Source: Welwitschia mirabilis (Eukaryota). Taken from it: a DNA stretch of 47,454 bases. Below are positions 1 to 36,129 of the stretch, piece by piece. The notes under the pieces are model-generated. The model did not search any database, was not told the DNA's origin, and saw only the letters and a program-made list of their open reading frames with translations. Position 1 is the first letter of the stretch. Each line of letters opens with the position of its first letter. Position numbers and translations under genes: made by a program. The stretch is taken from the NCBI GenBank assembly GCA_051453625.1, contig JBOZIK010000001.1, positions 14,164,506 to 14,211,959 of the forward strand, given 5' to 3'.

Positions 1-1099
1 TATTTTGGGAGTTCATGATGTTTTTTTTTCCCTTCCATGAATAACTAGTAGGAAGTACATCCTTATCTTTCATAAAGTTATGCTCTTCAATCTTATGGCC
101 AGACTTCCCACAAACCTGATAGGTTATGCTCTTACATGACTCGCTATTGTGCCCTCTCCTTTTACATTTTTCATGGACATGCTCCTTAGGCCTAAGGTAT
201 AACTTTTTGGCATGACCCATTTCGTTGCAATAGTTGCATGAACTATGTGGATTCTCATATTCCAATTTTATCTTCTCTATTTCAAAGTTGTGAATGATTT
301 GAAATTCTATAAAGATTTTGTTAACTCTCTAGCTATTCAAGCACAAAATCTGATGAGTATCATTCTTATTCTACTAAGAATTATTGGATCTAGTTTGATG
401 ACATCCCTAAACCAAATAACCATCAACCAAATAACCAAGGGTCTTTTACCCTTGTACTATTTAAACCTTATTTAGATTCAAACTTGAACAACACTAAACC
501 CTCAACTAGTGCAATAATTTAAATTGTTTAGATGTCTATCTAACTCAAAACTACCTAGTTTCTTATCACTTTCATGCATAGAGAATGTCTTGATGAAACA
601 AATTAACTAAATAAACTAAACTTCAACCTCTCATTTATGTTTATGTAGTGCTAATAAGAGGCTTTTATTTTGAACCTTCCCCTTTTCATGAAAAGTTTCA
701 TAACTAAAAAAGTCATTTAAAAGAACTGCAAAAAATAACTTCCATGAAAATGCATATCAAATGTGCTTTTGCTGCTCTTGCTACACATAGGACGAGGCCT
801 GAGCCCTTTCTTTTCACCTTCTCTTCTATGCTTTTTCAGTAGGGATTTTCTCTCTATCCATCCCTTATTGCTTTTCTTCCAATTACTGTTATAAGGCGTG
901 CTAGCTCCAAAGACTCACTGACTCACCGATGCCAGAAAAACTCTTTGAGGCTTCTACTTATCTCCACCTCCTTTGCTTTTTTGTAATACTCCACGAGTTG
1001 TCCATTGCTCCTACCTATGATCCCACTCTCTTGCTTAAGGACTCACTCTACTCACTAGCCTCATTTTCCTATTTTCAAAAAATTAGCTTTCAATACAAT

Positions 1100-4000
1100 T
1101 CTAAATAATAATTATGTTAATGATGAACAAGGTTGATGGAGAGGATTAGAGAGGGAGGAAAGCTAACGTTTGGGTAAGAGGATCAGATCGAGGATAGTAG
1201 GCACAAAGGATGACTTGTGAAGGCCCACATCAAAGAGGTGGTTTATGGGGCTCAAGCGGGAGTCCCTTCCTCTAAAGAATTTTTTCGTTTAGCATCATTG
1301 GCTTTTCCTTCTGAAAGAGAAAGAGGAACTGGCAAGAAAGGATAAGAAAGAAGTGAACTAAAGCAATCCTTAATGAAATATTTAAGCTTAGAAGAAGAAA
1401 GGTCAAGTCAACATGTCCACATTGCATGTTTAGCACAGGTGTGTTGGAAATGAGTTCCATTAAAGTAAGTTTTTCTTTTAAATATCTGAAGATGGGTTCT
1501 TTTGCTATGATATTCTTCTAAGATGTGAAAATTTCAAGACAAAATCCTCTCCTAAGTACTACATAGATATGGAGAAGAGGATAAAATTTAACTTTATTAG
1601 TATATTTGTTTCATCTAAATATAATCCAAACATGAAAGTGATTATAAAGTTAGTTGCACTAAGGTGAATAATAATCTTGGAAATTCAAGTTATAACACTA
1701 AAAGAGGGCTTACTCCTATTAATAGTTTAATATAAATAGGACATAAATAACATAATGGTAAAAGGCTTCCCTTTTTAATTCACACAGGGCTTTAACTTGG
1801 CAAGATGAAATCTAGGGGAGGATTTTGAAAAACTATTCCAAAAAATATCATTCTAGATTAAGTCAAGAGGAATAAGTTTAACCCTCTGGAATCAAGTCTT
1901 TATATAGGAAAGTGCAACATAATTTAGAGACATTATCAAGTTAGACCCTGTAACATGCAATAAGACAAGAATAGTGCTAATAAGATAATGTTCTTAGATT
2001 GATCTAGAACTAGGAAATAAGAGACTTCAAAGTCATTCATAGCTTCAAAACTAACCGAGTAAAACTAGAATGTTAGAACCATCCTAGGCCATGCAACTAA
2101 CACAAAATAATGAAGCACACAAAAAGGTATTGCCTCAAGCTAAAAGAACTCGTTCACAAAAGGTGCAGAAAAAGGGCACATATGTACAAGGTATGTGAAA
2201 ACATGGCCTATCAGGTTTGTGAAAAGTGTAGGCAGGTAACAGAAGAATGGAGGTATAAAAAAGATAACAATAACTTCTAACACTTCTGAGAAGAAGAAAA
2301 TTAAATACAATGATTAAACCACAAAGTAAAAGTGAAATAAAAGTTCAAAAATAAAACCAAGTTCCTGAACATAATAAAAAGGAGAATCCCCATTACCAAA
2401 GCCTAGTCAATAGGATAGATCTCAAAACATTTTTCCAAATAGATTCTCAACCTTAACGAGTAATGACTCAGGTAACTTCGATATAGAGTTGAAAAGTGGA
2501 AATAAAGTTGGAAAAAAAATTTTTAAAAAAAATTGGGGAGACCATAAAGAATTAACAAAGAATAAAAGAAAGCAATAGAAAATATTACAAATGGGTCTTA
2601 AGAAACACTTTTAGAGATGGTGAAAACCTTTGAAGGATAAACTAAACAAGGATTAAGAGTTAGAACATTAGGGGCATACAAACTACCAAAAAACTCAAGC
2701 GTTAAGGTTACCTTATGAAAAGATTAGCCCAAATATAATATGTTTATAAAAAAACAAAAGATCATTCAAAGGATTGTTTTATAATATATAAACAACACTA
2801 GAATATTAAATGGAAACCAAGTAAAGAAAAAATAGGATACTGCAACCTTCTTCGAGAAGGAAACCCAATAGAAAAGGATTGAAAGAAAAAGGAAACTCAA
2901 TAGAAAAGGATTGAAAGAAATAAAAGGCTTTAAATATTGGAAATAAAAGATTTGTTGTTTAGTTAACAATCACCACCCACAAAAAATAAAAGAAAGAATA
3001 AGATTATAGAAAAAACTAGAACATAAACTAGTTGGGAGAAAATTTCTTAATAATACATCATATCACTCAAACGTATTTTGAATGGGTAAAACAGGGGGCT
3101 AAAGTGGAATCCTATAGAAGATGAGGATCTTGAATTCCTAATAATAAACCTAAACATGATCGACTTACTGATAGATAAAATTCAATTCACATGATCAAAC
3201 AAAAGGAAATTAAAAAATAGCATCTTATTTAAAATAGAAAGGCACTGATCATAATGGATTGGGTAAAACAAACAAAATGGCTACTGGAAGGGAAATGAAT
3301 ATGATGTTCAAACTGCTAACCAATTCTACCTTTAGGAAAAAAAAGAGATCAAGAAGGGTTGATTCACTTTTGAAAACACCTTCCTTTCAAAAACAAAGTT
3401 GGAAGAGTTTGCGAAAAACAATTGGGTTGTGTAGGAAAGTGAGCTAGTGAAAAAAATTCCAAGAAAGGTTGGAATCTAAAAAGCAATGATTAAAGTAGTT
3501 GAGTAGGAAAAGAAGAAACAATATAAACTAGAAAGATAAATTAAATCATGTTTTAAGAGAGATACAAAAATGACAAGAAGAAGGACAAGACCCACAAGAT
3601 GAGAAAAGACAAAATCTTAGGGAACTACATAACATTAAAACACAAGAAGAGATATACTAAAGACAAATAGCCCACATTAACTGATAAAGAATGGGATAAG
3701 CACATTCAATTTTTCTTCAACTTAGTAAACTGAAGAAGGCATCAACACTTCATAAAGGAGGTCAGTTGGGCTAAGAGTACCTATTCAACAGATGGGTTAC
3801 ACAAAGTATTCTTACATAGTTTTTAACGATTATTCAAACAAATGAATATATAGAAATATCAAATGCTTTTGCAAACTCTAGCACAAATAACTGGAGAGGG
3901 AAACACCACCTAAAACCCTTAGATAAAACTCTAGGACAAATACATGTTGAGGCAAAATTCCCCTTAAACCCTTACATAAATATGAGGTGTAGAAGACTAT

Positions 4001-6136
4001 AAAAACTATAAAGCTAAATAAGAGTCCCAATTTAGACAGGTGGACAATTGATTTCTTTAGAAAGTATTAGCAACATATGAGAAGAATTAATATAGGTGGC
4101 AAACCATCAATTTTTCAAGAACAACAAGATCAACTTGATCACAAAAAAGGCAAAACCTGTATGTGTAGAACTTCAAACCAATTCAAGTTTGTAACATAGT
4201 ATATATACTATTCTTAAAAATATTGGTAAAGAAAATTCACCCATCCCCACAAGATAGTGATGCCTAACTAGGTTGGGCATATGAAAGGTAAAAGTATCTT
4301 AAACCAAATAATTCTTAACCATGAAATCTTGCACTTTTTTCAAAAGACAAATATTCCATCATGTATTTTATATCTAGATATTAAAAAAAGAAACAAAATA
4401 TTAAAATAGTCTTTCTCAGAGTTTCATGGCCTATCTCCTAGAAAGAAAGCAATTTCTATCTTAGAGTTTCATGGCCTATCTACTGGAAAGAAAGCGATTC
4501 CCTAAAAATTTTAAGAAATTAGTTGTCCAAATGCAAAGAACAACTAGATTTAGTTTATAGCTACAGCAAAGTATGCATGGTTTTTTTTTTTTGGGAGTAA
4601 ACCAAATATTCAGAGTTCTTTAGAGTAAGGAGTCTAAATAAAAGAGATCCCCTTTCACCTTACCTCTTCATAATAATGCTTAATTGCTTTCAAGACTACA
4701 TAAGAGAAGAAAAAGGAACAAGTTTCATATTGTACAATAAGAACTACCTTTATCACCCCTCATTTTCTCAAAGGAAAACATGAAACAAATTCAAAGAATT
4801 AAGGAAGGTCTTCAAAGGTTTGATAGGGAATTGAAACTAAAAGTAAGTGAGGAAAACAGCAGTATACTACTAACACATGGAGAAGTATTCAACAACGGAC
4901 CAAAAAACTCCAAAGATCTAATAGGGGAACAAAATGAACAATCACCTAAGAATACCCACGTTCCATTAGAAGCACATCTGAACATGTTGTCACAGTTTAA
5001 AGTAACTATTCCTCTTAAGAGAGGCAAAGATTATAGTGGTAAATGTAGTTTTGACAATCATTGCTCAATATAGTGCATCCACTAGATTTCTATACAAAAA
5101 AAAGAAAAAAGTTTGATGAACAAAATAATTAGAACTTCAAGAAAGAAGGTAAAATAGTGCATGCACTAAAGCTTCTTAGAAAAGTAAAAAATATAATTAA
5201 TAGAATAATCAAGAACTTTATCTAGTAAAAAAGTAAAAGGGGCATTAGTAATCATGTAAGGAAATGGAAAGAGATATCAAGGCCTATGGAATGAGGAGGA
5301 TGAGGTATCCAAGACATTCAAGATAACAAACTTATTACATCAGTGAATATCATCATGAATATTGAAGCAAGGGATCCCCATGTAAAGAGTGGATAAAGTA
5401 TAGAGATTAAAAGGTACATCCCCCTTATAACATAGAGGAGTTAACCCTGAAAAATTATTTTCTTAAAAAGAAGATAAGAAAAGAAGTAAAATACTATGGG
5501 ATACGAAAACCTACACAAGAAGTGGAATTTAACAAATTGATGTGACTATTGAAAAATTAATTGAGAAAATAAAAACTTGGTATCTTACAAAAATAAGGGG
5601 AAAGGATGAAGTTTTGTTGAATAATAAAGAAGTTATTTCAATAGGGCTCTTACTTAGCAAATAAAAAATTATCTAAGAGACATATAAGAGAAATGTACGA
5701 TAGGAAAACTTATGGTTTTAAAATGGATGTAAATGTGATGTCATAGTGATGGATTCATTTTTATACATGCATCATTAGCTTCTATCAATATATGTAGAAA
5801 AAGTAAGAAACAATTAAAGGAACGAAATTATGAAGATAAGAAGAGGACTACAAAAATCTTATAAGGTTTTTATGAAAAATAAAGTACAAAGGAATTACAA
5901 GGATGAATATGCATAATTAAGGATGTGTGTTTGCAAGTGTGCCTTATGAAAACTAAATCCATAACTTGAAAGCCATGATTTAAAGCATGTATGTGTAACA
6001 CATTAATTTTCTATAATAAAAAGAGACTATTCATATTTCTTATTTGACAATCTGAAGAAATATAAACTGAGATGAACCAAAGTGCTTAAAAGAGGATTAT
6101 GTGATCTAACAATATATTTTAATATATAGTGATGCA
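1100..6136 (+). mobile_element. Degenerate L1-type LINE retrotransposon (ORF1 DUF4283/zinc knuckle; ORF2 endonuclease-RT-zf), many stops and frameshifts
   Basis: Decayed motifs appear in the expected order: ORF1 'IKLDPVT...IDL' (~1935-2010) and a CxxCxxxGH-like knuckle (~2155-2200); endonuclease WNIRG-like (~2660), 'IDL...FT*SNKR' (~3160-3210) and 'IERALI..DW' (~3233-3262); RT 'KSPxLDRWTIDFFRKY*' (~4020-4070), 'LITKK.KP...NFKPI' (~4135-4185), 'SILNQIILNHEILH' (~4293-4335), 'RDPLSPYLFII' (=GDPLSPYLF, ~4643-4676); zf-RVT-like (~5725-5770). The ends are approximate and the 3' end runs into a gap. Confidence 0.85.
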
Positions 6137-6907
6137 NNNNNNNNNNNNNNNNNNNNNNNNNNNNNNNNNNNNNNNNNNNNNNNNNNNNNNNNNNNNNNNN
6201 NNNNNNNNNNNNNNNNNNNNNNNNNNNNNNNNNNNNNNNNNNNNNNNNNNNNNNNNNNNNNNNNNNNNNNNNNNNNNNNNNNNNNNNNNNNNNNNNNNNN
6301 NNNNNNNNNNNNNNNNNNNNNNNNNNNNNNNNNNNNNNNNNNNNNNNNNNNNNNNNNNNNNNNNNNNNNNNNNNNNNNNNNNNNNNNNNNNNNNNNNNNN
6401 NNNNNNNNNNNNNNNNNNNNNNNNNNNNNNNNNNNNNNNNNNNNNNNNNNNNNNNNNNNNNNNNNNNNNNNNNNNNNNNNNNNNNNNNNNNNNNNNNNNN
6501 NNNNNNNNNNNNNNNNNNNNNNNNNNNNNNNNNNNNNNNNNNNNNNNNNNNNNNNNNNNNNNNNNNNNNNNNNNNNNNNNNNNNNNNNNNNNNNNNNNNN
6601 NNNNNNNNNNNNNNNNNNNNNNNNNNNNNNNNNNNNNNNNNNNNNNNNNNNNNNNNNNNNNNNNNNNNNNNNNNNNNNNNNNNNNNNNNNNNNNNNNNNN
6701 NNNNNNNNNNNNNNNNNNNNNNNNNNNNNNNNNNNNNNNNNNNNNNNNNNNNNNNNNNNNNNNNNNNNNNNNNNNNNNNNNNNNNNNNNNNNNNNNNNNN
6801 NNNNNNNNNNNNNNNNNNNNNNNNNNNNNNNNNNNNNNNNNNNNNNNNNNNNNNNNNNNNNNNNNNNNNNNNNNNNNNNNNNNNNNNNNNNNNNNNNNNN
6901 NNNNNNN
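6137..6907. other. Assembly gap (N run). The other gaps are 29270-29338, 35403-36120, 46112-46523 and 46825-46924
   Basis: Runs of n in the sequence; the X-filled ORFs in the track come from these gaps. Confidence 1.
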
Positions 6908-7261
6908 TTGTAAATGAGTTTATAATATAATAAATTCTATTATGAAGCCTAGCTTATTCATAATACAAAAAAAAATAAAGGACAAGGTTCTAATGGTGGT
7001 TGGATTAAGGAGAAGGGGATTTAAAGTCACAGAGACCTATGGGAAGTGCCAAAGACCACTAAGCATCTCTTTCGGTATTATCTACTTGTGACAAAAGTGT
7101 GACAAGGTTTCAAAAGGGGAAAAAGAGTGCCTATGTTGAACTCGATTAGAAAACATGAAAAGTAGGTTTTTCATTTATCTAGCTAGCAAGACACAGGAGA
7201 GTTTTCAAGAGGGAAAATTCAGCCATGCAAGGTATCCTTTAGTAAATCTATCAAAGAATAG

Positions 7262-7708
7262 AAAAGTTGAAGCTACAAGGGAAATGGAAAACACCCTTAA
7301 TTTGAGCCAAAGGAAGTGGGGAAATACAAGGGAAATGCACAACTTTGACAAAGACTCCAAGCAATGGGTTAGACATGTTTAACAGACTCTAAGGGAAAGA
7401 CCAATTCCAAAACAAGAAAAGGCATATCAAATGGCAACTGTGAAGTTGAAAACTAACAAGCAAAAAAATTAGAACACAAAAAAAATTCTTTATTACGTCC
7501 ATCAAAAGGATAAGCCAAAGCTACAAGGAGAATGGGAAACACCCTCAGTTAAACCAAAGGAAGCAAAAAAAATATAAGGTAAATATGTAACTCTAGCAAA
7601 GGATCCAAGCAATAGGTTGGACACATGTGATGGACCTAAAATGTGACCCCACTTTTAAGATAAGAAAAGGCATAAATATTGGCAAGGTTGTAATTTGAAA
7701 CCAACATA
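7262..7708. repeat. Diverged tandem duplication, period ~250 bp
   Basis: aagctacaagg...ccaaaggaag...ccaagcaat...aagaaaaggcata occurs at ~7270-7460 and again at ~7518-7708. Confidence 0.8.
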
Positions 7709-8311
7709 TACCCATGAAGCCGAGGCAAATCACTGAGACAACTAGTCTTGCTCATAAGTAAAGACCGATTTCCCTTCTTTTACAAGATACAATCAATTGA
7801 TAAGTTTTTTGCGAAAGAAACCCCCAAAAACAAAAAAAAGATATTGAATTTTTTCCTTTTTAAAAAAAAGGCAAAGCTATAAACCATATATTTTAGCCAT
7901 GGAATTTATTGGCACATATTGATACAAGACAGAAATCACTCCAAATTGAAAAGATTACACTTTACCTTTTTGGTTTTTTTGGTTTGTCCATATAGAAGGA
8001 AAATAGATTTGCCAAACTTTCTTAAACAAAAGCTAAGAAGAGTATTCAAAAAAAGCATTCAAAGACTAATTAAGAAAGTCATCGATTTCTTAAAAGCTCA
8101 AAACTTGCTGAAGTATCCACCATACAGTAATGAAGAAACTTGCTAAGGAAGAACAAAGGGATTCAAAATCCCATCAAATAAAATAAAAGCCAAGGTATTT
8201 AAAAGAATCACCAATAATGACAAAATCAATGCTCTAATGAAAAATCCAACCATAGAAAACCCCAATCCCTTTATAACCTGAGAACGCTCTAAAAGAAGAC
8301 CCCTCTAATGA

Positions 8312-8780
8312 GAAGTGAACCCTAGAAATGATCATCCTCAATAACACTGAGTAGCCAATGGAGGATAAAAATATAGAAGACGATAGGCATAAAAATTCAC
8401 CCATGTTTTAAATTAGCATGTAGAGGAATCAAAGGAGAGGATGTGAAAGTTGGAGAAAGTCAAAGCTGAGAAAAAGTTGAGAAGAAGCTAGAGGAGTATC
8501 ACAATACCAATAACATCATCATCAACATCACCACCAAAGCCTAAGACAAAAGCCTAAAGAGGAGTGAACCCTAAAAATGATCATCCTTAACAACACTAAG
8601 TAGCCAATGGAGGTTAAACATATAGAAGAGGAGAGGCATAAAAATTCACCCATGTGTCAAATTAACATGTAGAGGAATCAAAGGAGGATGTGAAAGTTGG
8701 AGAAAGTCAAAGCTAAGAAGAAGCTGGAAGAGTCTCATAGTACCAACAACATCATCATCAACATCACCACCAAAGCCTAA
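8312..8780. repeat. Tandem duplication, unit ~220-230 bp, period ~250 bp
   Basis: agtgaaccct...gtagccaatggagg...aaaattcacccatg...catcatcatcaacatcaccaccaaagcctaa occurs at 8312-8543 and 8562-8780. Confidence 0.9.
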
Positions 8781-9510
8781 AAGAGGAGTCCCCACAAAAA
8801 GAAGACAGAGGCAGGAGATGAGGTTTAAACTACAAGTAACCTACCACAAAAATGAAACAAAGTATGACAAACTACTAACAAATAAAAACTAGAAAAAACA
8901 TTACACCAAATTACGCCTTAAAGAATATGCACTAGAGTAGGCTATTGGGTTGAATAACACAAAGCACAAAGGACATCTTAAAACGTAAGCAGACCAAATC
9001 CACTACTACAAGGACAAACTGACAATGCGATATTTAAGGTGATGGTATTGGTTTTCCTCAATGTCTTTTGTTTAGATCATCTTCCATTAAATCACCTCAA
9101 TTACATAAGAAAAAGAGACCCTCTTTTATCAACATAAAGGCTTCACCAACCAATGACTCTTGTTTTTTAAAACTCTTTTTGGAATCTATAACATAATTGA
9201 ATACAAGCAATTAGTTTTTCAAATTATATATACACATATATACATGCACACATATACTTGTATCAAATTTCTAAATTAAAATTCCCCTTGCAAAAACACA
9301 TATGCCCTATAAATAAGCATTTAATCTATGAATAGAAATTTTATCTATAATGTGGATCTAAGTTACAATGCAACTATCCACAATCATCTTAAATTCCTAA
9401 ATAATAATTTCCCTTACATACACAAATAAAACATACCATTAAAAATTTCACCTACAATGGAATGTTTTGCACTTAAAAATTTAGCTTCCAATATAATTAT
9501 AAGTAATTAT

Positions 9511-10168
9511 GTTAAACTTCTAAATAGGAAATTCCATTGCAAACATAAATAAAACCTAAAAATAAAAATATAACCTACAAATAAAAGTTTCATGTACAAT
9601 GAATACGTATCTTAAAAGTTTTACATGATTAAATTAGATTTTTAAAATGTATACACTAAAAAATAAAGCCGCTAGTAATAAGAACTTCAACTATGACCAA
9701 AAAAAGAAAAAAAACTATGAACTTTAAAAGCTCTCGTTCAAACAACATTAAGATGTTAAAGTACTTATAAGGTTTAAAATAAACAATACATCAAAACAAT
9801 TTCAAAATCAAAACATTTTTAAATTATCCATTTTAAATCCCCAAATATAGATATTTAAGTTAAATTTCTAAATAGGAAATTCCATTACAAACATAAATAA
9901 AACCTAAAATGAAAATTTAACCCACAAATAAAAGTTTTACCATAAACACATCTTAAAATTTTGACATGATTAAGGAAGTTAGATTTTTAAAGCTTATATC
10001 CTAACAAATAAAGCCACTAGTAAAAAGAACTTCAACTGTGACAAAAGAAACTTATGAATTTTAAAAGCTTTCATTGAAACAACACTAAGATGTTAAATTA
10101 CTTATAAAGTTTATAACAAACAATCAAAACAATTTTTTTAAAGTATCCATTTTAAATCCATAAATATA
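9511..10168. repeat. AT-rich tandem duplication, period ~348 bp
   Basis: ttctaaataggaaattccatt...aaataaagcc.ctagtaa...aagaacttcaact...tatccattttaaatcc occurs at 9511-9850 and 9859-10168. Confidence 0.85.
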
Positions 10169-11197
10169 AAGAATAATTTATTTTAAAAATATAAATATAC
10201 CAAATATTCATCAATATTAATCAACCGAGTAATGTTCAATAGAATAATAATAGTAGTTTAAAAAACAAAAACAAAATTGATAATTCTCTCAACAAATCGT
10301 ACAACATGCGTTTCAACTCAAAAATATTTCAAGATTATTGACGTTTAAAATATAAATATAAATAATAATTTATTTTACAAATATAAATTTATTACATGTT
10401 CGTCAATATGTTGAGGTTCAATACCATGATAATAATTTAAAAACACAAAAAAAAAAATTTGGAGAACTCGCTTAACAAATTGTACATCATTTGTTTCAAT
10501 ACAATGATAACAGTTTGAAAATTATAAAAATGTGAGAATTTTCCACACAAATGGTACAAAATGCATTGTATTATCTAATCACTGAAACCGTTTCTTGTTA
10601 AAAATTTCCGAAAAACTAAATTTACATGTTAAATTTCTTTTAACTGAAGAAAAGTAGTTTTACCTATTAAATTTCTTTATGTGCCCTTTAAAATAACCAT
10701 TTTATCTTTTTAAAATCCATTCAAATTTATAATTTTACCCTTAAAAAATATATAAAGATAAAGCACAATTGATTTTGCAGAAATAAATATAAATAATATT
10801 CATCACTTGTAATCTTATCATTTATGAGATACATAAATAACAACTGATTTTTTCCTCAAGACAACCTAATAGTAAAGCACGACTCTCGCATCTTTGTCTT
10901 TGTGGTTGAGTTTTTCACAAAACTATTTCTTAAATTTTACAATTTTATTATTTACAAAAAAGTTATTGTATTGATTGACATCAAAGTTATTATGAATTTT
11001 CAGTTTTTTTAAAGAGATCTTCTAGATTAAACTAAACCCAAAAAATAAGAGCTTATTTCCATGTTGACTTTCAAACAATTTTAACTTATATTAAAACATT
11101 TTGTACACACGTACAAAAATGTATTACCTAGGCTGACATCATAAGTCATTTTGAGTAAATTTCTAACGTTTGTTTCACTCTTTTAATGTATTAAGAT

Positions 11198-11265
11198 CAA
11201 AATAAGGGGCCTCTGTCAAATCAAACCATACCAAAATAAGGGGCCTCTGTCAAATCAAACCATAC
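11198..11265. repeat. Perfect 34-bp tandem duplication
   Basis: caaaataaggggcctctgtcaaatcaaaccatac x2. Confidence 0.95.
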
Positions 11266-11350
11266 TTTAGTCTAGAATTTAACCTCACTCTTTGACCAAT
11301 CCTACCTATGATTTTTGTCTTTCTATAGACTTTGCATGTTCTCTTGTAAT

Positions 11351-12352
11351 CATGGTTGTGAAACTCGAACTCACACCAAACTCGTTTGGCTACCTAGACT
11401 TGACTCATTAGCTAAACTCAGCACGGCCAAAAAAGTTAGGTTTTTATATATTTTTTAAAAGAAAAAACATGTTTATGCATTCAACTAAGGCATAAAGCAC
11501 TTCTAAATATTAGAAAATGTTAAAATACATCATATTAAATATTAATATAACAAGTAGCTATGTTTGCCAAAAACTCAAAGTTGTCATTACTTATTACAAG
11601 CTACATGCTTACAATTATTTTAATTCATTATTTTTATGCTTACAATTATTTTGATTCATTATTTTTGTAAAGCAGTTACAATTCCTAAAGATACACAATG
11701 TCATTTTTTATAAACTTTTTTAAAACTCCTAAGCTACAAATGCTTTCCTACGCTTTCCTTACTTGCTTAATTTCAATGCAAGAAAAAGGCAAATACACAG
11801 AAAAGAGGGGGAAATGTGAAAAATAATATAGATTTTAACTTAAAAATTAATTCTAAACTTTTAGATACATCACATCATCTTCCATACCTAAAGAAAATGA
11901 CAACACACAATTATTTTATGCACAAAACATGATTATAAGAAACATTTTTGCATTTTTTTATGTTTATGCACTTTTTCTTGGTGTGAAAGAAAACACATAA
12001 CAACGGTAAAGAGAAGGGAATCACTAGTGGGTGACAAGAGTTATAATAATAATAATAATAATAATAATAATTTCAGCCCTGTAATTAAGTCTCTGAAATG
12101 ACTTTGAATGTTGATGCTTGAATGCCGACATTTGAATAATTGATGTTTCACACTTTCACCTCTTTTCAGCCCTTCTTTTTACCCATTTTTGTTTTATTTT
12201 TGAGCCCTCAAGACAAATAATGTTTCCTTAACTGTCTTAGGGTGTTTAAACCTTTAAAAAACCAATTTTTTAAACATTTTTTAATGCATCCACAAGTTTG
12301 GCGAGCGAGACACTCGCAAACTCGCCGAACTCACCAGTGTTTCACAACAATG
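11351..12352. mobile_element. Non-autonomous hAT-superfamily DNA transposon (MITE-like, 1002 bp)
   Basis: TIRs CATGGTTGTGAAAC (11351-11364) and GTTTCACAACAATG (12339-12352) match at 13/14. The 8-bp TSD is CTTGTAAT (11343-11350) / CTTGTAAC (12353-12360). Subterminal AACTC(G) repeats lie at both ends. The interior is AT-rich and non-coding, with an (AAT)n run near 12045-12071. Confidence 0.85.
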
Positions 12353-12549
12353 CTTGTAACTAATTCTAATTTTGAGGTCCCCCATTAATATTCTATTCAT
12401 CATTATAACTTTAAAGTATCCAAATTTCATCATATTAAGTGACATCACAGTTATTGAATAAATTTCCAAGCTTTTAAAATTTTTAGTACTAAACCCAACC
12501 ATATTGTAAGTTTATTGCTTCATTAGCTTTTAAGCATTCTAAAAAATCG

Positions 12550-15500
12550 AATACTAGACCAATTATTAACTTCGAACAATTAATTTAAAAAAACAAAATC
12601 CGCAGCAAACACGAATCATAAAAGCACAAAAATTCTCTTAACTGGACGTCTCTCCAGCATAAGATCACATCCCATATTTGGAATCGTTAGGATGAAATGC
12701 AATATAGAACTTACCACTCTATACACAATGTATTAGATTTCAAAAGACAGCATAACAAGAAAACATTTAATGGAGTTGCACCTCTTCCATGCCTTCAATC
12801 TCCAGATAGACAAAACAAGTAAATAAAACTGCATATACCAGAACCGAGTAAAATGTTTCGTTTCGCAAAATTTGTAACGTTAAATGTGATATTAGTTTAT
12901 GATTTCACAATTTCACGAGAACATCATTACAACACTATATATAAACACAAAACAATTTAAAGCAGAGAAAATAAAAATTCGTAGAAATGAAATTTGACAA
13001 AATCACTTAACGCTACGTTGTCTTATGCCTTAAAACTGTAATATTCCAAAACCACTTCCACTACCATTTTGTTTATGTTGTGATCCCCCTAATTCAAAGT
13101 GAATTGATATTACAAATCATGTTGAAATCAGTTTCTATGCTATGTCAAACTAGTATAAGAGTATACGGATAGGATATACTAGGCAAAGAAATATCAGGTT
13201 CTGTGCGATAACTATGTCTAACGAGAATGAAGATATATCATACTGAAGAAATATCAGTTTCTGTACTCTTTTTAACTTTCAAAATGTAAACTCTATAAGA
13301 AAATACTTTTAATTTACCTATCTTTAGACTATGCTCTTTTTACCAGACTATAAGAAGAAACCGGCAACCAATTAGACGCTACTCCATAAGTAAAAGGTAA
13401 TCAATATGTCCTTAATGAAATTGACAATAAGAGAGAATTTGCTAATAAGTTAATTCAAAAAACCGTCACCGTTTTGCTGCATTTGTCAATTAAAATAACG
13501 AATAATGGTGTTTGGAACAATAATCACCAACTACTTACATAGTAGGCCACTGGACGAGAAAACCGTTAAATACTTCCATCAAAGCTGTGCAGTTTCGTTG
13601 TCAATTCCACAAGCAGATTAGCTACGTTGTTTTGACTCGGAGAGACAGGACGTCGATCGATTCCATAGGCAAACTTAACACATAAAGAAAAAATCTGTAA
13701 GATATTTTGAAAGCGTAGAAAACCTCGTAACAAATGCAGTCCTTTCAGTGAAAATACCTTTCTTTCCACTCATATCGCCAGCAAGTCTGCGCTTAGGAGT
13801 CTAAGATAGCGAACACGCACACTGAGATCGCCCGGATTGGCCCAAAAATTTATTCATGGCCAGATTCTAGGGTAATGAATTTTTCACTGCAAAATTCACC
13901 AGAGAAATCCACCTCAAAAATTCAACCGAAGATGTTTAGGATTCCTGAATTCTGCAATGGACAGGCCTAGACCATTGTGGGCTCCTCTGGCGATTCAAAT
14001 GCTGTAGAAGTGACGCATGGAGAGATGTCTACGTACATTCAATTAGGGTGTGATTAATTGTATATGAAAAAACCTCATGTACAAAAAGCATTGCCTCCTG
14101 GTTTGCCTCGGCTTGGCAAAGTGCTCGGAATCGCTTTGCCTTTGTCATCTTTTGCTGTAATGACTTTTCATATTTGCCTTTCTCATATTTTTTTGTAATG
14201 ACTTTTGACATTTGAATTTAATAAACTTGTTCATTATATCCCTCTATTATATTGCTCTACTGCGTGACTCTCCACATGCCGCTCTCCCCAGCTTTTCTTT
14301 TGGCTATGTCAACAAATAAAAGGGAAGTAAAAGGGTTGTAATGAAATCCAATAAGTAAAAGGGTTGTAATGAAATTGAAGCATTCTCTGAGAAACAGGAA
14401 AAAATTTACTTACTTTATATTGAATCATGCTTTCCCAAAAGCTCAAACATCACATATAAACCAGAAAAAAGGGGAGGATGATTACATAGATTCCAATAGT
14501 GTATCTCCTTTTATCGCTCCAAGAATATGGAGAAATGAAAATGAAAAAAATAGAGCATCCAAAGCTCAGAGCAGATAAAAATTATCTTAACCAGAAGCAG
14601 AATAAAAAGAATATTACCTCAGGCATCGGAGTACGACATCATTAGACAGGTCTGGACCAAGAACCCAACGAACAATACAATAGGAAGATGCCGAAATAAA
14701 AATAAGTAGCGTCACTCGTTAACTCTCATCTCAAATATGACAGCAGATGAAAAACAACAGTCACTAGGAAGCGTGTAATTAGAACAAGTAATCAACACCG
14801 ATTCGTTTACAGAAGATTATAAACACGTATGTATTCCATAAGATAAACAGGTTGCACTCTTGGCATGCTTAGTCTAACTTAGATCCTAAATGGATAATAT
14901 TTGATGTCCAGAACGCAAAACGAAAAGAACTTTATCCAATCGTTTCAAGTACGCATTAAGCATCAAGATAGAATAGAAAGAAGTTTGGTAAGATAACAAT
15001 TCCAAAACTGAGATACCTTAATTAAAGTGGCTAAGACGCCAATACGACGATTTCCACGAAAGACACCAGCAATAATGAGGTTAGTTACCATAAAAGATTT
15101 CAGCAACGTGCAGTAAACGTTTAAACAAGAATCAGTTAACGCACCTTACATAGCGTTCAGGTATTCACTCGGTATATGTTAACATCCTTATTTTCTTAAA
15201 GCCAGCTTCAGAGTTCAAACAAATTCACATGGCATTGAACGTTCTTGAGCAACGTTATATATGCACATGTATTTTAGTGAGAGAAGCATTAATTATTTCC
15301 GACCCGATACGTGTCTTCCAAAATTATTAGATGAGTAACAATCAAAAGGGATCAAAGAGAAAACAAAGCGACACACGCGCCAGGCATGAATGAAAGCCCT
15401 GCCAAAAAAAAAATTGAAAAAGAAATAACGCAGTATATTTATTAATATTTTGATCAACCTCGAGAGCGCTCCCTACGAGGTACAATCCCTTGTATCTACA

Positions 15501-16435
15501 ATCTACATGCATAAATATATCCTCTATGACATTGTCTATGGAGCAGTTAAGGGGCCTCACAGAGTCCACGGCTGCAATAGACTGCCAAATTTTCAAAATA
15601 CCGTGATATGTAATTACAATCATCATCAGCAGATATATAGCACTAGTCAAGCACTATAGTCAGAAATCATTACTAACTAAAATCATATAAGTATGATTGA
15701 GGTAATATTATACTAAAAGAGTTGTTAAACCGTGCTTTGAGGCCAGACGAAATTTTAAAACAATAGTGAGGGTATAAAACAGAGGTAGCAAAGAACGTCC
15801 CTCTTTGAAGTTTAACAAGAAAAGACGGTGGAAATATATTGCAAACACATACAACAAGACAAACGTAAAAGTCGAAAACAACGTTTCACTAAAAACGCTC
15901 GATATGAGACCGAGCAAGCACATCAAAGATCGGCGAAAATAAAGCTGTAGATCTGGTGAACATCAAACAAAAAGAAAGAAAACCGCACGTCAACAACACA
16001 GAACGCAGAACTGAAGCACGTGGGATGAACACAACCGGAAAACGTAAAATGCGACATACATCCGAAAAAGGAATAAGCAGGAATAAATAAATTACAGACA
16101 CAGAAACATACAACTAGCGTTTCTAGGGTTCGAAGAAAGCAAACAATGAACAAAACATCATCAAGAAATCAAAAAAATAATAAACCAACCTAAAGCCACG
16201 GTGTCTAGGATCTCCACAAAACATCGAATGAAAGCTTATCGAGAAATCAAAAACTGTTTCTAGGATCTCAACAGAGCAAACAAAGAAAACAATACTTATC
16301 AAAAAATCAAAAAATAAACAGACACATACAGCTAGGGTTTCTAGGTTTTCATAAAAGCAAACAAAGAAATAAACGGTATCAGTTCAACAAACAATAATTG
16401 TGACAGACATTCAAAATGCTCTACCAAGTGATAAC
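12550..16435 (-). ncRNA. Candidate spliced long non-coding / small-RNA host transcript of unknown family
   Basis: CpG is retained here but depleted in the flanks. Minus-strand U-rich intron-like tract ~15.7-16.4 kb. Acceptors (T)10GGCAG| at 15399 and ATGCAG| at 12829. Donors AAG|GTGCGT (~15144), AAG|GTATCT (15016), GAG|GTAATA (14617), AAG|GTATTT (~13757), |GTAAGT (13538) and GTG|GTAAGT (12714). No credible ORF. Transcription is inferred, not shown. Confidence 0.45.
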
Positions 16436-16454
16436 GAGAAGAGGCCTGCATCGC

Positions 16455-16632
16455 GACCAAATATATACAACATTATATCGGAACAATTGTGAATCGTAAG
16501 AAGCACGACCATCCGGAAGAGCCGCACACAAGAAAAGCTGCACTTCTTGATAAGGACAATTCATTAAGGCTCATTGTTAAGGAAGAACGTCCGCGAACAA
16601 CAGGATACGAACGCGTTTCATTGACGTGGCGA
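16455..16632 (-). promoter_or_regulatory. Putative Pol II promoter: ABRE/G-box-like TGACGTGGC, CGCG box AACGCGTT, TATA-like element
   Basis: TGACGTGGC at 16622-16630, palindromic AACGCGTT at 16610-16617, CCGCG at 16591-16595 and TATATAT (minus) at 16461-16467. An initiator-like TCACTT lies ~30 nt downstream (~16430) and a telo-box-like AAACCCTAG at 16332-16340. Confidence 0.5.
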
Positions 16633-16982
16633 TTACTTTAAAAAGTTCATTTTCTGAAAGAATATATTGATTAAATTTTAATAAAAATTCTTAAGCCAGA
16701 CGAAAGGGTAATTGCAATGACCACAGTTTTGTAAGCTTTCATACCTTCGCTTGTCCTTGCAAGTAAGTGGTTTAATGAAATACTATTTTGTGTTTGCCAT
16801 CTCTACTTCTCATGAACCGGATTTTGTCAAAGCAGAAATTTCATAAAAATTATATTCAGGACTAAGTTTGTGTCACCAAATGAAACCCATTGGTGGCCCT
16901 TATTTGCTTAAGAGCTTATTACAAAATGTCTAGATTTCACTTGTGACATATACCCGTCATCTCAAAACCCATATTAAAATTT

Positions 16983-17120
16983 CAAAAAAAAAAAGCCTCA
17001 TGTCAAATGTGTCTTAAAGACATAAATAAAACCATAAGCGAACATGCACATTGTAGAACTTGAACCCAAAATCCTAAATCTAATTGTTTATAAACATGAC
17101 TTGATTAACTATGCTATATG
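16983..17120 (-). mobile_element. Possible decayed tRNA-derived SINE head
   Basis: Minus strand has an A-box-like TAGCATAGTTAA (17116-17105) and a B-box-like GGTTCAAGTTC (17066-17056), 38 nt apart, followed by a T run at ~16984-16994. Confidence 0.3.
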
Positions 17121-17299
17121 TTAAGCTCTAAGACTCTCTCTCATGATGTTGAAGTTATTTTGTTTTTGTTCTAATTCAAACCTTTCCTAAGTATTCCAAC
17201 ATTTTATTAATGTTATACATATTGAAATATTTTACATCAAAGGATCTTAAGTAGAGAAACAACATTTGGTAATATTAAATGAATGTGAAAAAAAAAATT

Positions 17300-20200
17300 A
17301 AGCGACAGGAAACTAGGATAATGCCTATTAGTTATAAGTGGTTATTTTACTATACTTAAAGGATGATGTTAGATATGAAATATTAACTTGATATTAACAT
17401 ATTTCAAGATTAAGAAGCCTATGACCAGGCTATAAATATAATGCAAATTAAAAGGAGAAAACCTCGTAGCTAAGAAATACATTATCATAACCAAACATAA
17501 ACTCTTTGAAAGTAATAAAAGATCTTTAAGAACCCTTTGCTACATGATTCTCAAGTGGTATAATAACGTTTTCATAGTCTTTTTTAAACTCGTTGGTTGT
17601 AGTCATACAAGGGCTATCATAGAGGTTTAAACCAAAGGGATATGTTGTGCAATAACAATATTTTAATGAGGCAACTGTGAAATTAAGCAAAGCACATCTG
17701 ACCACTGTTCTAATAGCCAAAAGGTATAACTAGTATCCAACTAAATTTCTTCACTTGACCTTGGATCTCAAAGCAATAATTTGTAAATTAGTAGTTTAAA
17801 TCTTAAATTAGAAAATTAAAGTTATCAAAAAATATGATTGCATTAGCTTTTTAAGATCTCATAAAAGATGTAGGGTCTAAAATAGTTCCAAAGAAATAAA
17901 TAGTATGTTATTAGATTTTGTAGATATCCAAAAATAATATGCTTTTAATAAGGATGAAATTCTTAAAAGGCTACAGGAATCCACATTAAAATGTTTTAAT
18001 CCATAAAGAAATCAATGACGTAATGTTATAAGTTGTCTTTATTATTGCGGGAAAAAAAAGGAGGCAGCAACTACAAATTCGATATGATAAAGCCTTCTAT
18101 CAATAGGTCTTACTTGATAAAATAGACACTATAAACAATGTTATGCTTTTTATAAGGAAGTTAATTTCCAAATGCTTTAAGCTCTTGATACCCATGAATT
18201 CTCTAACTAAGAGGTATGCATAATTTATCACAATGATTCTCAATGGATATGTCTTTTAAAAGCATATCATAGGAATTTTTAATTCTATAAGGATAAAAAG
18301 AACTACCATCTTTTGACTATATTAAATTTAGAAGTGAAAAATAATTATCTGGGATAGGAATTGCATTGGAAATCTAAGAGATAAAGTTTGCCAAAAAAAA
18401 AAAAAAAATTCTACAGAATTTAAGTTATCATAGATCTACTAGAATATTTCTCATGAAATCATCAATTATTTAAGCAAAGACATAAAAGAGGGACCACACC
18501 CTATTAATCTAATGAGCTATTAATTAAGATCTTAAAGAAGTAATTTAAGTGCTATTTAATGATAACAATCATGAAACTACTTATTCTAACATTGAATAAA
18601 TAATAAAAAACTTTTTCCACATAATATTCTTTTAAATCATCTTCCATGCAATCCTAAATCTTTTGAAGATAATAAATCCTTAAACCTTAACATCTCTAGG
18701 AGGCCTAAACCAATCAACAGGATTGATATCTTTCCATCTTCATCTATTCTTTAGATAAGTGGCTGTAAATAGTTAAAAATCTAGATCTCATCATCATATT
18801 ATGGAGTCAAAATATTAGCTAACCACTTATCATAAAGATACACCTTGTAGAAAGTAGTTAAAAAAGCTTAAACCTCCCTTTTTAATAGATATGTACTAAA
18901 CCCTCCATGCAACTATGCAAAATAATTTTATATCTTTATTAAATAACTACATGACATCATAAAATATCTTTCCAATTTTCTTATAACTTAAAGGAGTGAG
19001 AGCCTAATAAGAAGAAAGACAAATATGATTAATAGAAGAAACAATTTACACACTAAGTATCTTTTAGCATTTTGAGACTTATCTACTTTGAAAGCCAATT
19101 TATTAAAAGTAAAGTATCATTACTACCTAGCAGAACCTTGTAAAAAAAAAATTAAAAAAAAGATAATTTCAAGAATTTTAATCACCTTCTCATATTGGGT
19201 AATTTTTCATGGTTTAAACATAAGCCATGTGTAACTTTTGAAAATAATAAATACTAATGAATTTTCTTGATTGGTCTTAAAATCAACAAAATAATAATAA
19301 ATATTAATTCTAGAGAGTAACTATAATAGCTTAAAAATTGTTAATTAAAAAGAAGTAGTTGTCTTCAAAGTGCATTTATGAAAATTATTTATTATTTAAA
19401 TAAAGCACCTATGGGTATGTCCGAAAAATTATTTTTAGAGGATTATTATTATTTGTTTTCATTCTTAAATTTTTCAATTTTAAAGGATTTGATTCATATA
19501 TCAAAGATGTGATTAAACCCTTGGTTATTATTATATAGCAAAGAATTTATTTAATTATTAATAATGAAATCAGTTAGCTAATCTTCTCATTAAATCTTTT
19601 GGCTTCACCTTATTTATCAAATCATTTCTACTACATGATGATTACCTTTGTGGTCTTAAATAAGTTGGTTCGAATTTTAACTGATATGAATATTGTGACT
19701 AAGATTTTCATGCTTATCCTTTTGCATAGCATGACATGAAAAATTACTATAATAATATAAATATAGGAAGACCAAGGACATCCTTACCTTAAAGATCTTT
19801 CAATAGGAAGAGTGAAAATAACATCTCCTATAATATCAACACTAGCATTTGCATCCTTAAACAAATAATTTACCATATGAACAAAAATATTTTCAAATCT
19901 TAGCTTTCTATGTAAGGTAAGATGAAGTTTAATTCAATTCTATCATGACCTTTTGGATAATAAAGTTTAAAAAAGAAAATATCTTGATTAGTATCCTTTA
20001 CTCATGCTAAACATTTTCAAGAGGATAAAACATTATTAAGAATATATCTAACTTTGATTAATAAAACTCTAATCAATACAAATAATATCAAGTATTATAG
20101 TCTTTAACTTGTTCGTTAAGCATTAAACAAAGTCATTGATCTCTAATTGGAAATGAAATGCGAATCACCTAATTTTGGAAAAACACAAATGATATCTTAA

Positions 20201-25829: not shown

Positions 25830-28800
25830 ATGAGTAATCCTTTTGATGGCCTCTCTACTAGAATACCGCCCATGTTTGATGAATAAACTATGCCTACTGG
25901 AAGGCTTATATGAAAATCATTCTTAGATTATTAGATATAGACGTAGAAGAGGTAATATCAATGTACATGTTATGCCCACACTATCCAAAATTGATACTAA
26001 TGAAACCACCATAGTGGCAGAAAAATCTCCAGATTAATAAACCCCTACCGACAAAGCCAAATCTACCCTAAATGCTTATTCTCTTAATGCTATTTTTTGT
26101 GCAAGGTGTGTAGATGAATTCAAGAGGATTGTAAACTGTAAACATGCTAAAGAAACTTGGCATATTCTTGAAATAGCACATAAAGGAGCATCCACTGTAA
26201 AGTAAGCAAAGCTACATATGCTTATCTCCAAGTTCGAAGATATTTGCATGAAAGAAGAGCAGATTCTATAAGAGTTCTTTACTAGAATGATTGACATCAT
26301 AAACTCTATAGCAAGTCTAAGTAAGAAAATGGATAAAAGAACGGTTGTAAAAAAGTTCTAAAATGTCTCTTAAAATGCTTTAAGTCAAAGGTCACAGCCA
26401 TCAACGAAAGAAAGAACATCAATCAAATGGAACTTAAGGAACTTCAAGCTAATCTTCAAACTTAGTAGTCAAGATTTTCTAAAGATAAAAAGGAAAGTCT
26501 TCTGTTAAAAAGTATGCAAGAAGAGTCCAAATTTGAAAAATTGGATGAAGACTTGATGAAGAGGAGATTGCTCTTTTGACAACAAAAAATTCTTACATAA
26601 AAGAAAGAAAGAAGGTAATCAAATAAGAGATCAAAGAGGGATTATTCAAGACTAAGAAGAGATCTAGAAAAAGAAAAAAAAATCCAAAGTTATGCCTATA
26701 AGAGATATGAACATATTATAAACAGATGTCCAAACAATAGAAGATATTAGAGCAAATCCAAGACATCATCATTTATTGCCACCTGGGATAATGTAGATAA
26801 GGAAGATGACAGTAGCTCAAGCTAAAAGTCAAATGGAGATAAAAGACTTTATTTTATGGTAATAGTCCCTTCCATAAAGAACATGCCTTACTTAACAGAA
26901 CCAAATGATTTAGATTATATTAGAGAAGCTTAAAAGGAACTTGAAGATATCTATTAAGAGCTTTATTCAAAATGTGAAAATTTGGTGAAATAAATCAATG
27001 AACTAAACAAGATAGTAAAGGCTATAACAAAGGAAAAGGAAGAGTTAGAGACAAAGTATAGGATGGTTCAAACAAAAAACTCTAAACTTACTCAAGAGGT
27101 AAAAAGTTTGTCTCACTTTGTAAATAAATTTTCAAATAATTCAAGTAAATTAGAACAAATGCTTGGGATATGAAGACCAGTTTATGATAAGAAAGGTATT
27201 GGATTCATCTCATAAAAACCATAAAATTAGTCAAATTAGGTAACATGGAAAAATAACTATATGTCATAAATTATGTTTCAATTTTATAGAAAGACGGGTT
27301 ATTCAAAATTATTTTGCAATGCTAAAAAGTTAATGCTGTTTTTAAATTCTATTAGTACTTTTCCATTTAAATTTGTCCAAAGGAAATGTGTACCCCAATA
27401 ATCCAAATGGACTAAGTGGATAAGGGCTAATAATTTATAAAGTTTATTAATTCAAACAACCTTTAAAGTATTAAATGAAAATAGCTAGTACTTGGATAGT
27501 GATTACTCTTGATACATGATACGTAATAAATCAAGATTCTAACATTTAAATAACTTTGATGAAGCAAAAGTAACATTTGTTGACAACAAAAAAGTAAAGA
27601 TTGAAGGTATTAGAAGCATCAGTGAAGGTAATATGCCAAAAATTAATAAAGTTTTATATGTGAATGGTCTTAAACTTAATTTGCTAAGTATTAGTCAAAT
27701 TTGTTAAGGTCATAAAGTTATTTTTGATAATCAAAGGTGTGAAGTTAGACATGGTAAAAAAAATGATATACTTCTTAAAGCAAATAGAATAGATAATGTT
27801 TATAGGCTTGATCAGTCTTTATCTACTTATTATTTTTATCATATAAATCAAGAAGAATTATGGCACTAATGATTAGGACATGTAAACTATGATTATCTCA
27901 AAAATATCATTAAAAAAAAGATTGTGAAAGAAATTCCCAAGATTGACATTAAAAAACATGGGCTTTGTGATGCTCGTCAACAAAAAAAATAAGTTAGGAT
28001 TTCTCATAAAAGTAAAAACATAGCCTTCTCAATAATGCCACTTGAACTCATTTACATGGACTTAGTGGGTTTGGCCCAAACTAAAAGTCTAGGAGGAAAA
28101 TGATATTTTCTAACCATGGTTGATAACTACTTTAGATTTACTTGGATTGCTTTCTTAGGAAGAAAAGCTAAAACTTTTAAAAGTTCCATTGAAGTTTGTA
28201 ATAAAATTCAAAATGAGAAAGGACACACTATTAAAAAAATTAGAAGTAACCATGGAAGAGAATTCGAAAATCATCTTTTTAAGAAGTATTGTGTAGACAA
28301 TGGTATAGAACATCAGTTCTCAGTCTCAAAGAATTTTCAACAAAATGGAATTATAGATAGAAAAAACCGAGTCCTTCAAAAAAGGATAAGAACAATGTTA
28401 AATGATAAGAAAGTTTCTAAAGCTTTTTGGGCTGAAGCAGTAAGCACTTCTTACTACATTATCAAAAGAGTCTATCTAAGACTAGGCATGGATAAAACCC
28501 CCTATGAGCTTTGGAAAGAAAGAAAACCAAATGTTTCATATTTTAAAATCTTTGGAAGTAAATGATTTATCTTAAGATATAGAAAACATTTAAGTAAATT
28601 TAAGTCCAAAGCTGATGAAGCAATATTTTTGAGATACTCAACTAGAAGTAAAGCCTATCAAGTTTTCAACAAATAAAGTCTAATAGTGGAAGAATCTATA
28701 AATGTTCAAATAGATGACTTTAACATAAGAATTCTTCCTTCAAATGTTGAATAAAATATAACTCCAAGCACCTTCACAATAAAAGAAGTAACAATCAAAA

Positions 28801-28890: not shown

Positions 28891-29338
28891 CAAATAAGAA
28901 AATAATTCTTTCTTTCCTTCTTTGTTAATTAGATCAATATTATGTATTATCTAGATCCAAAATAAACAAGGAAAGATCTTATATTTTTTTTGTATCTAGA
29001 AGTTATCAATGGTTTTCTCTTTAACCTTAATCTATAATTTAGCTAATAATAAATATTTTCAAAGTTTTGGAAATTCTATTTTCATTTTGTAGATCTCTTG
29101 TAGACCTTTGAAAGTGGATTTTACAAAAGCTTCAAAAAAAAGATAAATAAATGAAAACTTTAATAGATTTCAATCATAGGTACATTTATGGTATTTAAAT
29201 CCATTCTTACCCTCCCTCCCTCCCCCATTCCCCCACACTCTCTCTATTCTTACCCTCTTTTTTTCACTTNNNNNNNNNNNNNNNNNNNNNNNNNNNNNNN
29301 NNNNNNNNNNNNNNNNNNNNNNNNNNNNNNNNNNNNNN

Positions 29339-35500: not shown

Positions 35501-36129
35501 NNNNNNNNNNNNNNNNNNNNNNNNNNNNNNNNNNNNNNNNNNNNNNNNNNNNNNNNNNNNNNNNNNNNNNNNNNNNNNNNNNNNNNNNNNNNNNNNNNNN
35601 NNNNNNNNNNNNNNNNNNNNNNNNNNNNNNNNNNNNNNNNNNNNNNNNNNNNNNNNNNNNNNNNNNNNNNNNNNNNNNNNNNNNNNNNNNNNNNNNNNNN
35701 NNNNNNNNNNNNNNNNNNNNNNNNNNNNNNNNNNNNNNNNNNNNNNNNNNNNNNNNNNNNNNNNNNNNNNNNNNNNNNNNNNNNNNNNNNNNNNNNNNNN
35801 NNNNNNNNNNNNNNNNNNNNNNNNNNNNNNNNNNNNNNNNNNNNNNNNNNNNNNNNNNNNNNNNNNNNNNNNNNNNNNNNNNNNNNNNNNNNNNNNNNNN
35901 NNNNNNNNNNNNNNNNNNNNNNNNNNNNNNNNNNNNNNNNNNNNNNNNNNNNNNNNNNNNNNNNNNNNNNNNNNNNNNNNNNNNNNNNNNNNNNNNNNNN
36001 NNNNNNNNNNNNNNNNNNNNNNNNNNNNNNNNNNNNNNNNNNNNNNNNNNNNNNNNNNNNNNNNNNNNNNNNNNNNNNNNNNNNNNNNNNNNNNNNNNNN
36101 NNNNNNNNNNNNNNNNNNNNAAAGATCCT

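Follow-up and report, generated by a model that had tools for sequence, protein, structure and literature searches.

A spliced minus-strand transcript from a CpG-retaining island in Welwitschia mirabilis, probably the product of a long intergenic noncoding RNA gene

In plant genomes, expressed genes and regulatory DNA have been described as being marked by stable unmethylated regions (UMRs) (10.1101/2020.05.21.109744), and ASCO, a long noncoding RNA (lncRNA) of Arabidopsis, has been described as acting as a decoy for splicing factors, NSR among them (10.1101/2020.01.03.894055). The locus considered here lies in a 47,454-nucleotide (nt) stretch of Welwitschia mirabilis DNA (assembly GCA_051453625.1, contig JBOZIK010000001.1, positions 14,164,506 to 14,211,959; termed the window herein, with positions counted from its first letter). 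An original prediction, made from the bare sequence, had proposed a functional noncoding RNA gene on the minus strand at 12550-16850. We conclude that this block probably holds an independent, spliced, polyadenylated intergenic lncRNA gene of an ordinary type on the minus strand. RNA sequencing (RNA-seq), coding tests, and Rfam agree with the prediction as to an isolated, spliced, noncoding unit on that strand that lacks an open reading frame (ORF), whereas the function ascribed to it is still putative.

RNA was mapped to positions 12000-17300, using two raw RNA-seq runs from two studies with the same species label (X9 and X12, the latter an oligo-dT library) and two contig sets from older runs (X1 and X2). 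The X9 run contributed 1398 mapped reads from 12,546,805 records and the X12 run 950 from 11,053,536, corresponding to abundances of about 37 and about 28.5 reads per kb per million reads, respectively, and sampled words of the locus were found at 36-74% in four older runs from four studies. In both X9 and X12, read cover was unbroken from ~13416 to ~16601, and depth was zero or almost zero in the bins spanning 12177-13415 and in those starting at 16602 or higher. Each contig set held one long contig (3288 nt, spanning 13145-16626, in X1; 2988 nt, spanning 13399-16580, in X2) that lies wholly within the locus, carries both splice joints, and ends inside the locus without foreign sequence and with no coding exon attached. 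Among the indexed runs, X1-X4 are classed as RNA only by a guess; the X1 and X2 contigs, as just noted, are spliced.

The raw reads listed only two joints, both reading CT..AC on the plus strand, that is, GT..AG on the minus strand. Transcription from the minus strand, as originally proposed, is confirmed by the GT..AG dinucleotides of all three introns found (two main and one rare), by the U-rich composition of the introns, and by the 3' bias of the oligo-dT library, in which depth rises toward low coordinates (about 80-89 at 13770-14300 vs 29 at 16248-16424), as fits a 3' end on the low-coordinate side. The RNA is present in the oligo-dT library, and no poly(A) tail was found among the loose read ends. 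The transcription unit has the following parts.

16660..16669, minus strand: TATA-like element from sequence reading, about 35-43 nt upstream of the 5'-most contig end (X1 record 6, 16626); putative function.
16580..16626, minus strand: transcript 5' end region with the likely start sites (X1 contig start at 16626, X2 contig start at 16580).
14414..16626, minus strand: exon 1, 2213 nt, 41% U, unspliced; X9 and X12 cover unbroken, both long contigs gapless, no joints.
14304..14413, minus strand: intron 1, 110 nt, GT..AG, 45% U; joint 14303/14414 in 56 X9 reads, 23 X12 reads, and one contig each of X1 and X2.
13758..14303, minus strand: exon 2, 546 nt, 42% GC, bounded by both joints.
13674..13757, minus strand: intron 2, 84 nt, GT..AG, 44% U; joint 13673/13758 in 79 X9 reads, 51 X12 reads, and one contig each of X1 and X2.
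13399..13673, minus strand: exon 3, with the main 3' end near 13400-13450 and an extension to 13145 in X1.
12829..13538, minus strand: rare alternative intron, 710 nt, GT..AG; X2 record 10 reads 12610-12828 and then 17 letters identical to 13539-13555.
12610..12828, minus strand: rare alternative 3' exon; depth 4.4 in X2 record 10, 5.4 and 6.3 in X1 records 4 and 5, and about 1.7 in X12.

At the 5' end, X9 depth tapers from about 51 (16248-16424) to about 15.6 (16425-16601) and then to 0.63 (16602-16778), and an ACGT-core element at 16622-16629 falls in the transcript 5' end region. A promoter-like cluster that had been read at 16455-16632 proved to lie within the transcript, at the 5' end of exon 1, and not upstream of it. 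At the main 3' end, X9 depth is about 29 in bin 13416-13592 vs 0 in bin 13239-13415; the X1 contig reads past this point and the X2 contig stops at 13399. Intron 1 is partly retained, with depths at variant sites inside it of about 6 (X9) and about 23 (X12) vs about 100 and about 80, respectively, in the exon, and exon 2 holds a 38-nt tandem repeat in 2.1 copies (14135-14214). The rare isoform is represented by a single low-depth contig (X2 record 10, depth 4.4 vs 45.7 for the main form), and low-depth contigs extend down to 12257.

Just past the far 3' end of the unit, at 12140-12360, lies a repeated element that is covered by short X1 contigs at depths of 120-343 and at which contigs diverge (at 12128, 12209, and 12301); it has 5 CpGs and a GC-rich inverted repeat at ~12280-12340 with folding z-scores of -3.0 and -4.5 on the two strands.

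That the unit is spliced had been foreseen, and this is borne out by two GT..AG introns, each supported by 23-79 junction reads in every run, but both of these main introns (14304-14413 and 13674-13757) had been missed. Among the six splice sites put forward, donor 13538 and acceptor 12829 are real and delimit the minor intron. Acceptor 15399 and donors 15016 and 14617 are crossed by reads and by both long contigs, donor 12714 is crossed by X2 record 10, and no joint occurs at any of these four. With donor 12714 unused, a proposed 114-nt exon at 12715-12828 is not bounded as supposed, and what had looked like a U-rich first-intron tract is part of the 2213-nt first exon. Splice sites guessed from consensus alone were thus unreliable, four of six being wrong and both main introns being overlooked.

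Taken together, transcription begins near 16580-16626, just downstream of the TATA-like element, and runs through a U-rich first exon of ~2.2 kb, after which come two short GT..AG introns, in the 3' third, that are efficiently removed. The usual 3' end of the RNA is near 13400, with a less frequent one at 13145 and a rare one, reached through the 710-nt intron, in the exon at 12610-12828. The product would be the RNA itself.

Joint erosion of CG and CHG sites is the expected footprint of transposon methylation in plants. The whole window is AT-rich (about 28-35% GC), and its CpGs are concentrated, 130 of the 302 lying within 12500-16950 (4451 nt), where the observed/expected ratio (o/e) for CpG is 0.94 vs 0.24 at 1-12499 and 0.18 at 16951-47454. 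Across the 500-nt bins from 12501 to 16501, CpG o/e is 0.84-1.22 (except in bin 14001, with 0.44), and in the remaining bins of the window it is 0-0.41 nearly throughout, the exceptions being bins 9501, 10001, 10501, and 12001. The trinucleotides show a matching contrast: CAG/CTG o/e is 1.22/0.94 within the block vs 0.37-0.60 in the flanks, and CCG/CGG o/e is 0.89/0.74 within the block vs 0.08-0.22 in the flanks. CpG retention against depleted flanking transposable elements (TEs), the starting point of the original prediction, is thereby upheld. Dense CpGs extend from ~12302 up to 16630, which delimits one further feature.

12300..16630, no strand: CpG- and CHG-retaining block, matching the extent of the transcription unit including the rare 3' exon (from CpG positions, CpG o/e, and CHG o/e).

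As judged from di- and trinucleotide decay alone, the block would be an island spared CG and CHG methylation. Its CpGs may have survived because the whole unit escaped the methylation that eroded the flanking old transposon DNA; since CpG o/e is near 1 beside flanks at 0.2, this escape would have been long-lasting, with the germ line lacking methylation at the locus for a long time, as would fit the link between stable UMRs and expressed genes cited above. The main transcript contains five C>T/G>A variants, and none of them falls at a CpG.

Elsewhere in the window, a remnant of a Ty1/copia integrase lies at 28104-28562 on the plus strand (Pfam rve, E value of 1e-5, under the cut-off), the sole match among 45 ORFs of at least 62 amino acids (aa) outside the block. 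Its identity to elements of flowering plants, Citrus, Vitis, and Carya among them, does not exceed about 54-60%, and since even its best relatives are so distant, the flanking TEs and repeats are judged to be old. Very AT-rich, satellite-like tandem repeats occupy 9246-10814, with unit spacings of about 123-126 nt and about 320-400 nt and copies that are 66-91% alike; three 500-nt bins there (9501, 10001, and 10501) have a CpG o/e of 0.56-1.19 from just 3-6 CpGs each, at ~21-23% GC. A second, far weaker CpG rise occurs at 37001-38000 (15 CpGs, o/e of 0.41, 37-40% GC); the only ORF of at least 62 aa reaching it, at 36938-37126, is without a Pfam match. Short tandem duplications lie at 11198-11265 (two 34-nt copies, 100% identity) and 11605-11666 (two 31-nt copies, 97%). 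Five runs of N, 2070 bases in total (6137-6907, 29270-29338, 35403-36120, 46112-46523, and 46825-46924), create spurious long ORFs in the ORF listing.

A CpG o/e near 1 would also suit recently arrived DNA, so instead of a gene of its own the block might be a transposon of recent origin, inserted organellar DNA, or untranslated sequence belonging to a coding gene beyond the window; the minor isoform and the low-depth contigs, which reach 12257 and adjoin the repeated element with its high-depth short contigs, could be read in the same way. Such an origin is very improbable in view of several results. No terminal direct or inverted repeats were found around the block, no TE or organelle protein domain was found by Pfam among 90 ORF pieces, no tRNA or rRNA was found by Rfam in the whole window, and blastn found no similarity between the block and the remaining 42.7 kb of the window. 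The short introns (84 and 110 nt) with GT..AG ends belong to the nuclear spliceosomal type, the intermediate read fractions of the variants resemble those of alleles at a nuclear locus, and the long contigs end inside the locus. Within the 47-kb window, and with joints from four runs, the unit is therefore isolated, as had been claimed: neither TE nor organelle remnants were found in it, and no coding exon is joined to it by the long contigs.

We then consider whether the RNA could encode a protein. The longest frame of the spliced RNA (3288 nt) has 103 aa from stop to stop and 94 aa from an ATG, and both lengths are within chance, being equaled by 136 and 62 of 500 dinucleotide shuffles, respectively. 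A search of 5.8 billion protein clusters with the 94-aa ORF returned one candidate and none with an E value of ≤0.01 (shorter ORFs were not searched individually), and the same ORF is hit at 15403 by a frame-shifting +AA allele that is present in 22 of 61 X9 reads and 8 of 26 X12 reads. A Pfam scan of the 90 stop-to-stop pieces of at least 30 aa from both strands of 12300-17000 gave a best E value of 0.012, with all matches under the curated cut-offs. Peptide-like stretches beside donors 15016 and 14617 were dropped as candidates, these donors being unused and Pfam being without a match there. The predicted absence of a credible ORF is thus borne out by the shuffles, the homology search, the Pfam scan, and the indel allele, and a coding role is unlikely. 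The RNA is polyadenylated and abundant and contains several ATG ORFs of 33-94 aa, so that it might still be an mRNA for a micropeptide, encoded either in 5'-proximal ORFs of 14-47 aa or in the ORFs of 60-94 aa. Given ORF lengths within chance, a 94-aa ORF without a homologue and interrupted by a common +2 indel allele, and no ORF piece at the Pfam cut-off, we regard this as highly improbable, with the limit just stated on the search of the shorter ORFs.

Known RNA families were sought with Rfam 15, which gave no match at the gathering score in the whole window; at an E value of ≤1, the sole match within 12000-17500 was to a small Cajal body-specific RNA (scaRNA) model (22 bits vs a gathering score of 91), at a site beyond the unit. 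At both thresholds, the locus is thus without a known RNA family, as the original prediction had it. Stem-loops had been said to pair better on the minus strand, which holds for the mean energy of 120-nt windows (-19.5 kcal/mol on the minus strand vs -15.2 kcal/mol on the plus strand) but does not extend to the exon pieces when these are set against their own shuffles (see below); the better folding of the minus strand looks like an effect of its U-rich composition. One local hairpin stands out as a candidate.

13885..13959, minus strand: best local hairpin, a weak miRNA-like candidate, -25.7 kcal/mol, z-score of -2.60 on the minus strand vs -0.20 on the plus strand.

Plant primary microRNAs (pri-miRNAs) are capped, polyadenylated, and often spliced. 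This hairpin, which folds well on the minus strand only and sits in exon 2 with an intron on either side, could therefore mark a small-RNA precursor, be it a lineage-specific microRNA (MIR) gene or a transcript of the phased small interfering RNA (phasiRNA)/TAS type. However, it was picked as the best of about 225 windows, for which reason its z-score of -2.6 is not significant, and the 5-nt one-sided bulge in its 3' arm is larger than plant miRNA annotation normally allows. In addition, Rfam found no miRNA, small nucleolar RNA (snoRNA), or other family in the unit even at an E value of ≤1, the even read depth across the hairpin and the abundance of the precursor are unlike those of an efficiently diced precursor, and the retention of CpG and CHG would speak against heavy methylation directed by small interfering RNAs. 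We consider a precursor role improbable, and the earlier suggestion of a small-RNA or snoRNA host is not sustained. Two other hairpins were rejected: at 14040-14110 and 12270-12345, the plus strand folds at least as well, and the hairpin at 12270-12345 is a GC-rich inverted repeat that the main transcript does not include.

A search for repeats (families D3, D7, D12, and D20) and self-blastn revealed a modular region in the first exon.

16100..16394, minus strand: degenerate internal repeat modules in exon 1, consisting of four 33-nt copies and a 77-nt pair.

Two of these modules contain telo-box-like octamers, at 16123 and 16332. Telo-boxes have been described as DNA sites for TRB proteins, which recruit chromatin modifiers (PMC11287191). 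Three such octamers occur in the window, a number that was reached by 6 of 100 shuffles and makes them a weak lead, and a cis role of the modules is likewise only a lead. The number of U runs in the RNA was not above that in shuffles.

The transcript is polymorphic, with 19 variant sites listed between 13984 and 16524 in addition to indels. At two positions, the reference differs from the RNA: at 16118, the reference has C and the RNA has G in 62 of 62 X9 reads, 34 of 34 X12 reads, and both contigs, and at 13501, one base is absent in 18 of 18 X12 reads, 16 of 26 X9 reads, and both contigs. Each of these mismatches is either an assembly error or an allele private to the individual that was assembled.

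A number of results weigh against the reading of the locus as a functional lncRNA gene on the minus strand. In the two raw libraries, first mates are about equally divided between plus and minus, as in unstranded data. The four minus-strand exon pieces are unremarkable when compared with their own shuffles (z-scores of -1.86, +0.86, -1.27, and -0.80), and the top z-score for hexamer enrichment in the RNA, 3.3, is to be compared with maxima of 2.6-5.9 in 20 control shuffles. The density of variants shows no sign of strong constraint, as judged without a neutral baseline. Moreover, the RNA has many upstream AUGs and stops far before the exon junctions, so that a translated copy would be a target of nonsense-mediated decay, and because translated copies would face this decay, the high RNA level would be unexplained unless the RNA is nuclear or untranslated.

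Several of these points would be accommodated if the RNA were expressed and functionless, a stable transcript driven by an orphan promoter or by a decayed old gene, with CpG retention as a by-product of transcription-linked chromatin. The high variant density (indels included), the lack of both a structure signal and an enriched motif, the 94-aa ORF without a homologue, and the coincidence of the CpG-rich block with the transcribed span instead of a separate regulatory region would all agree with this. On the other hand, two independent RNA studies agree in showing high expression, and assembled copies of the RNA come from four older runs of four studies; splicing of the introns is clean and efficient, and the ends of the unit are defined; and the contrast in CpG o/e with the flanks would imply a lasting escape from methylation. 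We therefore hold a functionless transcript to be unlikely, though far from negligible, and retain an independent lncRNA gene as the probable reading.

As to what such a gene would do, only guesses can be offered. The RNA may be a mostly nuclear regulatory RNA that serves as a platform or decoy for RNA-binding proteins, similar to ASCO, which we put forward tentatively, as a possibility that falls short of being favored. That transcription and the telo-box-bearing 5' modules matter in cis is another guess, and a rather unlikely one. A combined version would be a long shot: an abundant, broadly expressed, U-rich lncRNA of 3 kb, conserved beyond the species, that would act in trans as a decoy or platform for splicing or RNA stability factors binding U-rich sequences, while its telo-box modules would help to keep the island open in a transposon desert. 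The locus may already carry a noncoding RNA annotation in the species' own genome annotation, and as a gene it would be one more plant long intergenic noncoding RNA (lincRNA), of interest only if it is conserved or has a phenotype. More generally, a cue from bare sequence, an island that keeps CpG and CHG amid eroded repeats, can locate a well-expressed noncoding gene in a repeat-rich plant genome.

Among described systems, the genes of plant MIR precursors and snoRNA hosts share with this locus a spliced, polyadenylated, ORF-less transcript of RNA polymerase II, and the hairpin between two introns adds to the likeness. Unlike MIR genes, it has no Rfam family and its hairpin fails the one-sided-bulge criterion, and unlike snoRNA hosts, it has introns, of 84 and 110 nt, that are without an Rfam snoRNA match. 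ASCO, as described in the source cited above, is likewise intergenic, noncoding, and polyadenylated, a likeness that serves as a guess at mechanism and not as a claim of membership. For an ASCO-like decoy, the 41% U of exon 1 would suit proteins that bind U-rich sequences or pyrimidine tracts, and no repeated or enriched motif was found here. The likeness to the UMRs described for TE-rich plant genomes (10.1101/2020.05.21.109744) lies in an island without CG/CHG decay that coincides with an expressed unit, methylation being read here from that decay alone. The closest match is with plant lincRNAs, with which the locus shares a length of >200 nt, features like those of RNA polymerase II transcripts, polyadenylation, few exons, no ORF above about 100 aa, an intergenic position, and no match to an RNA family. 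Typical lincRNAs are far less abundant than about 28-37 reads per kb per million. The RNA described here differs from them in this much higher abundance and in its unusually long first exon (2.2 kb), and its locus would stand apart from plant lincRNAs in general in being the sole unmethylated island across 47 kb or more of decayed repeats.

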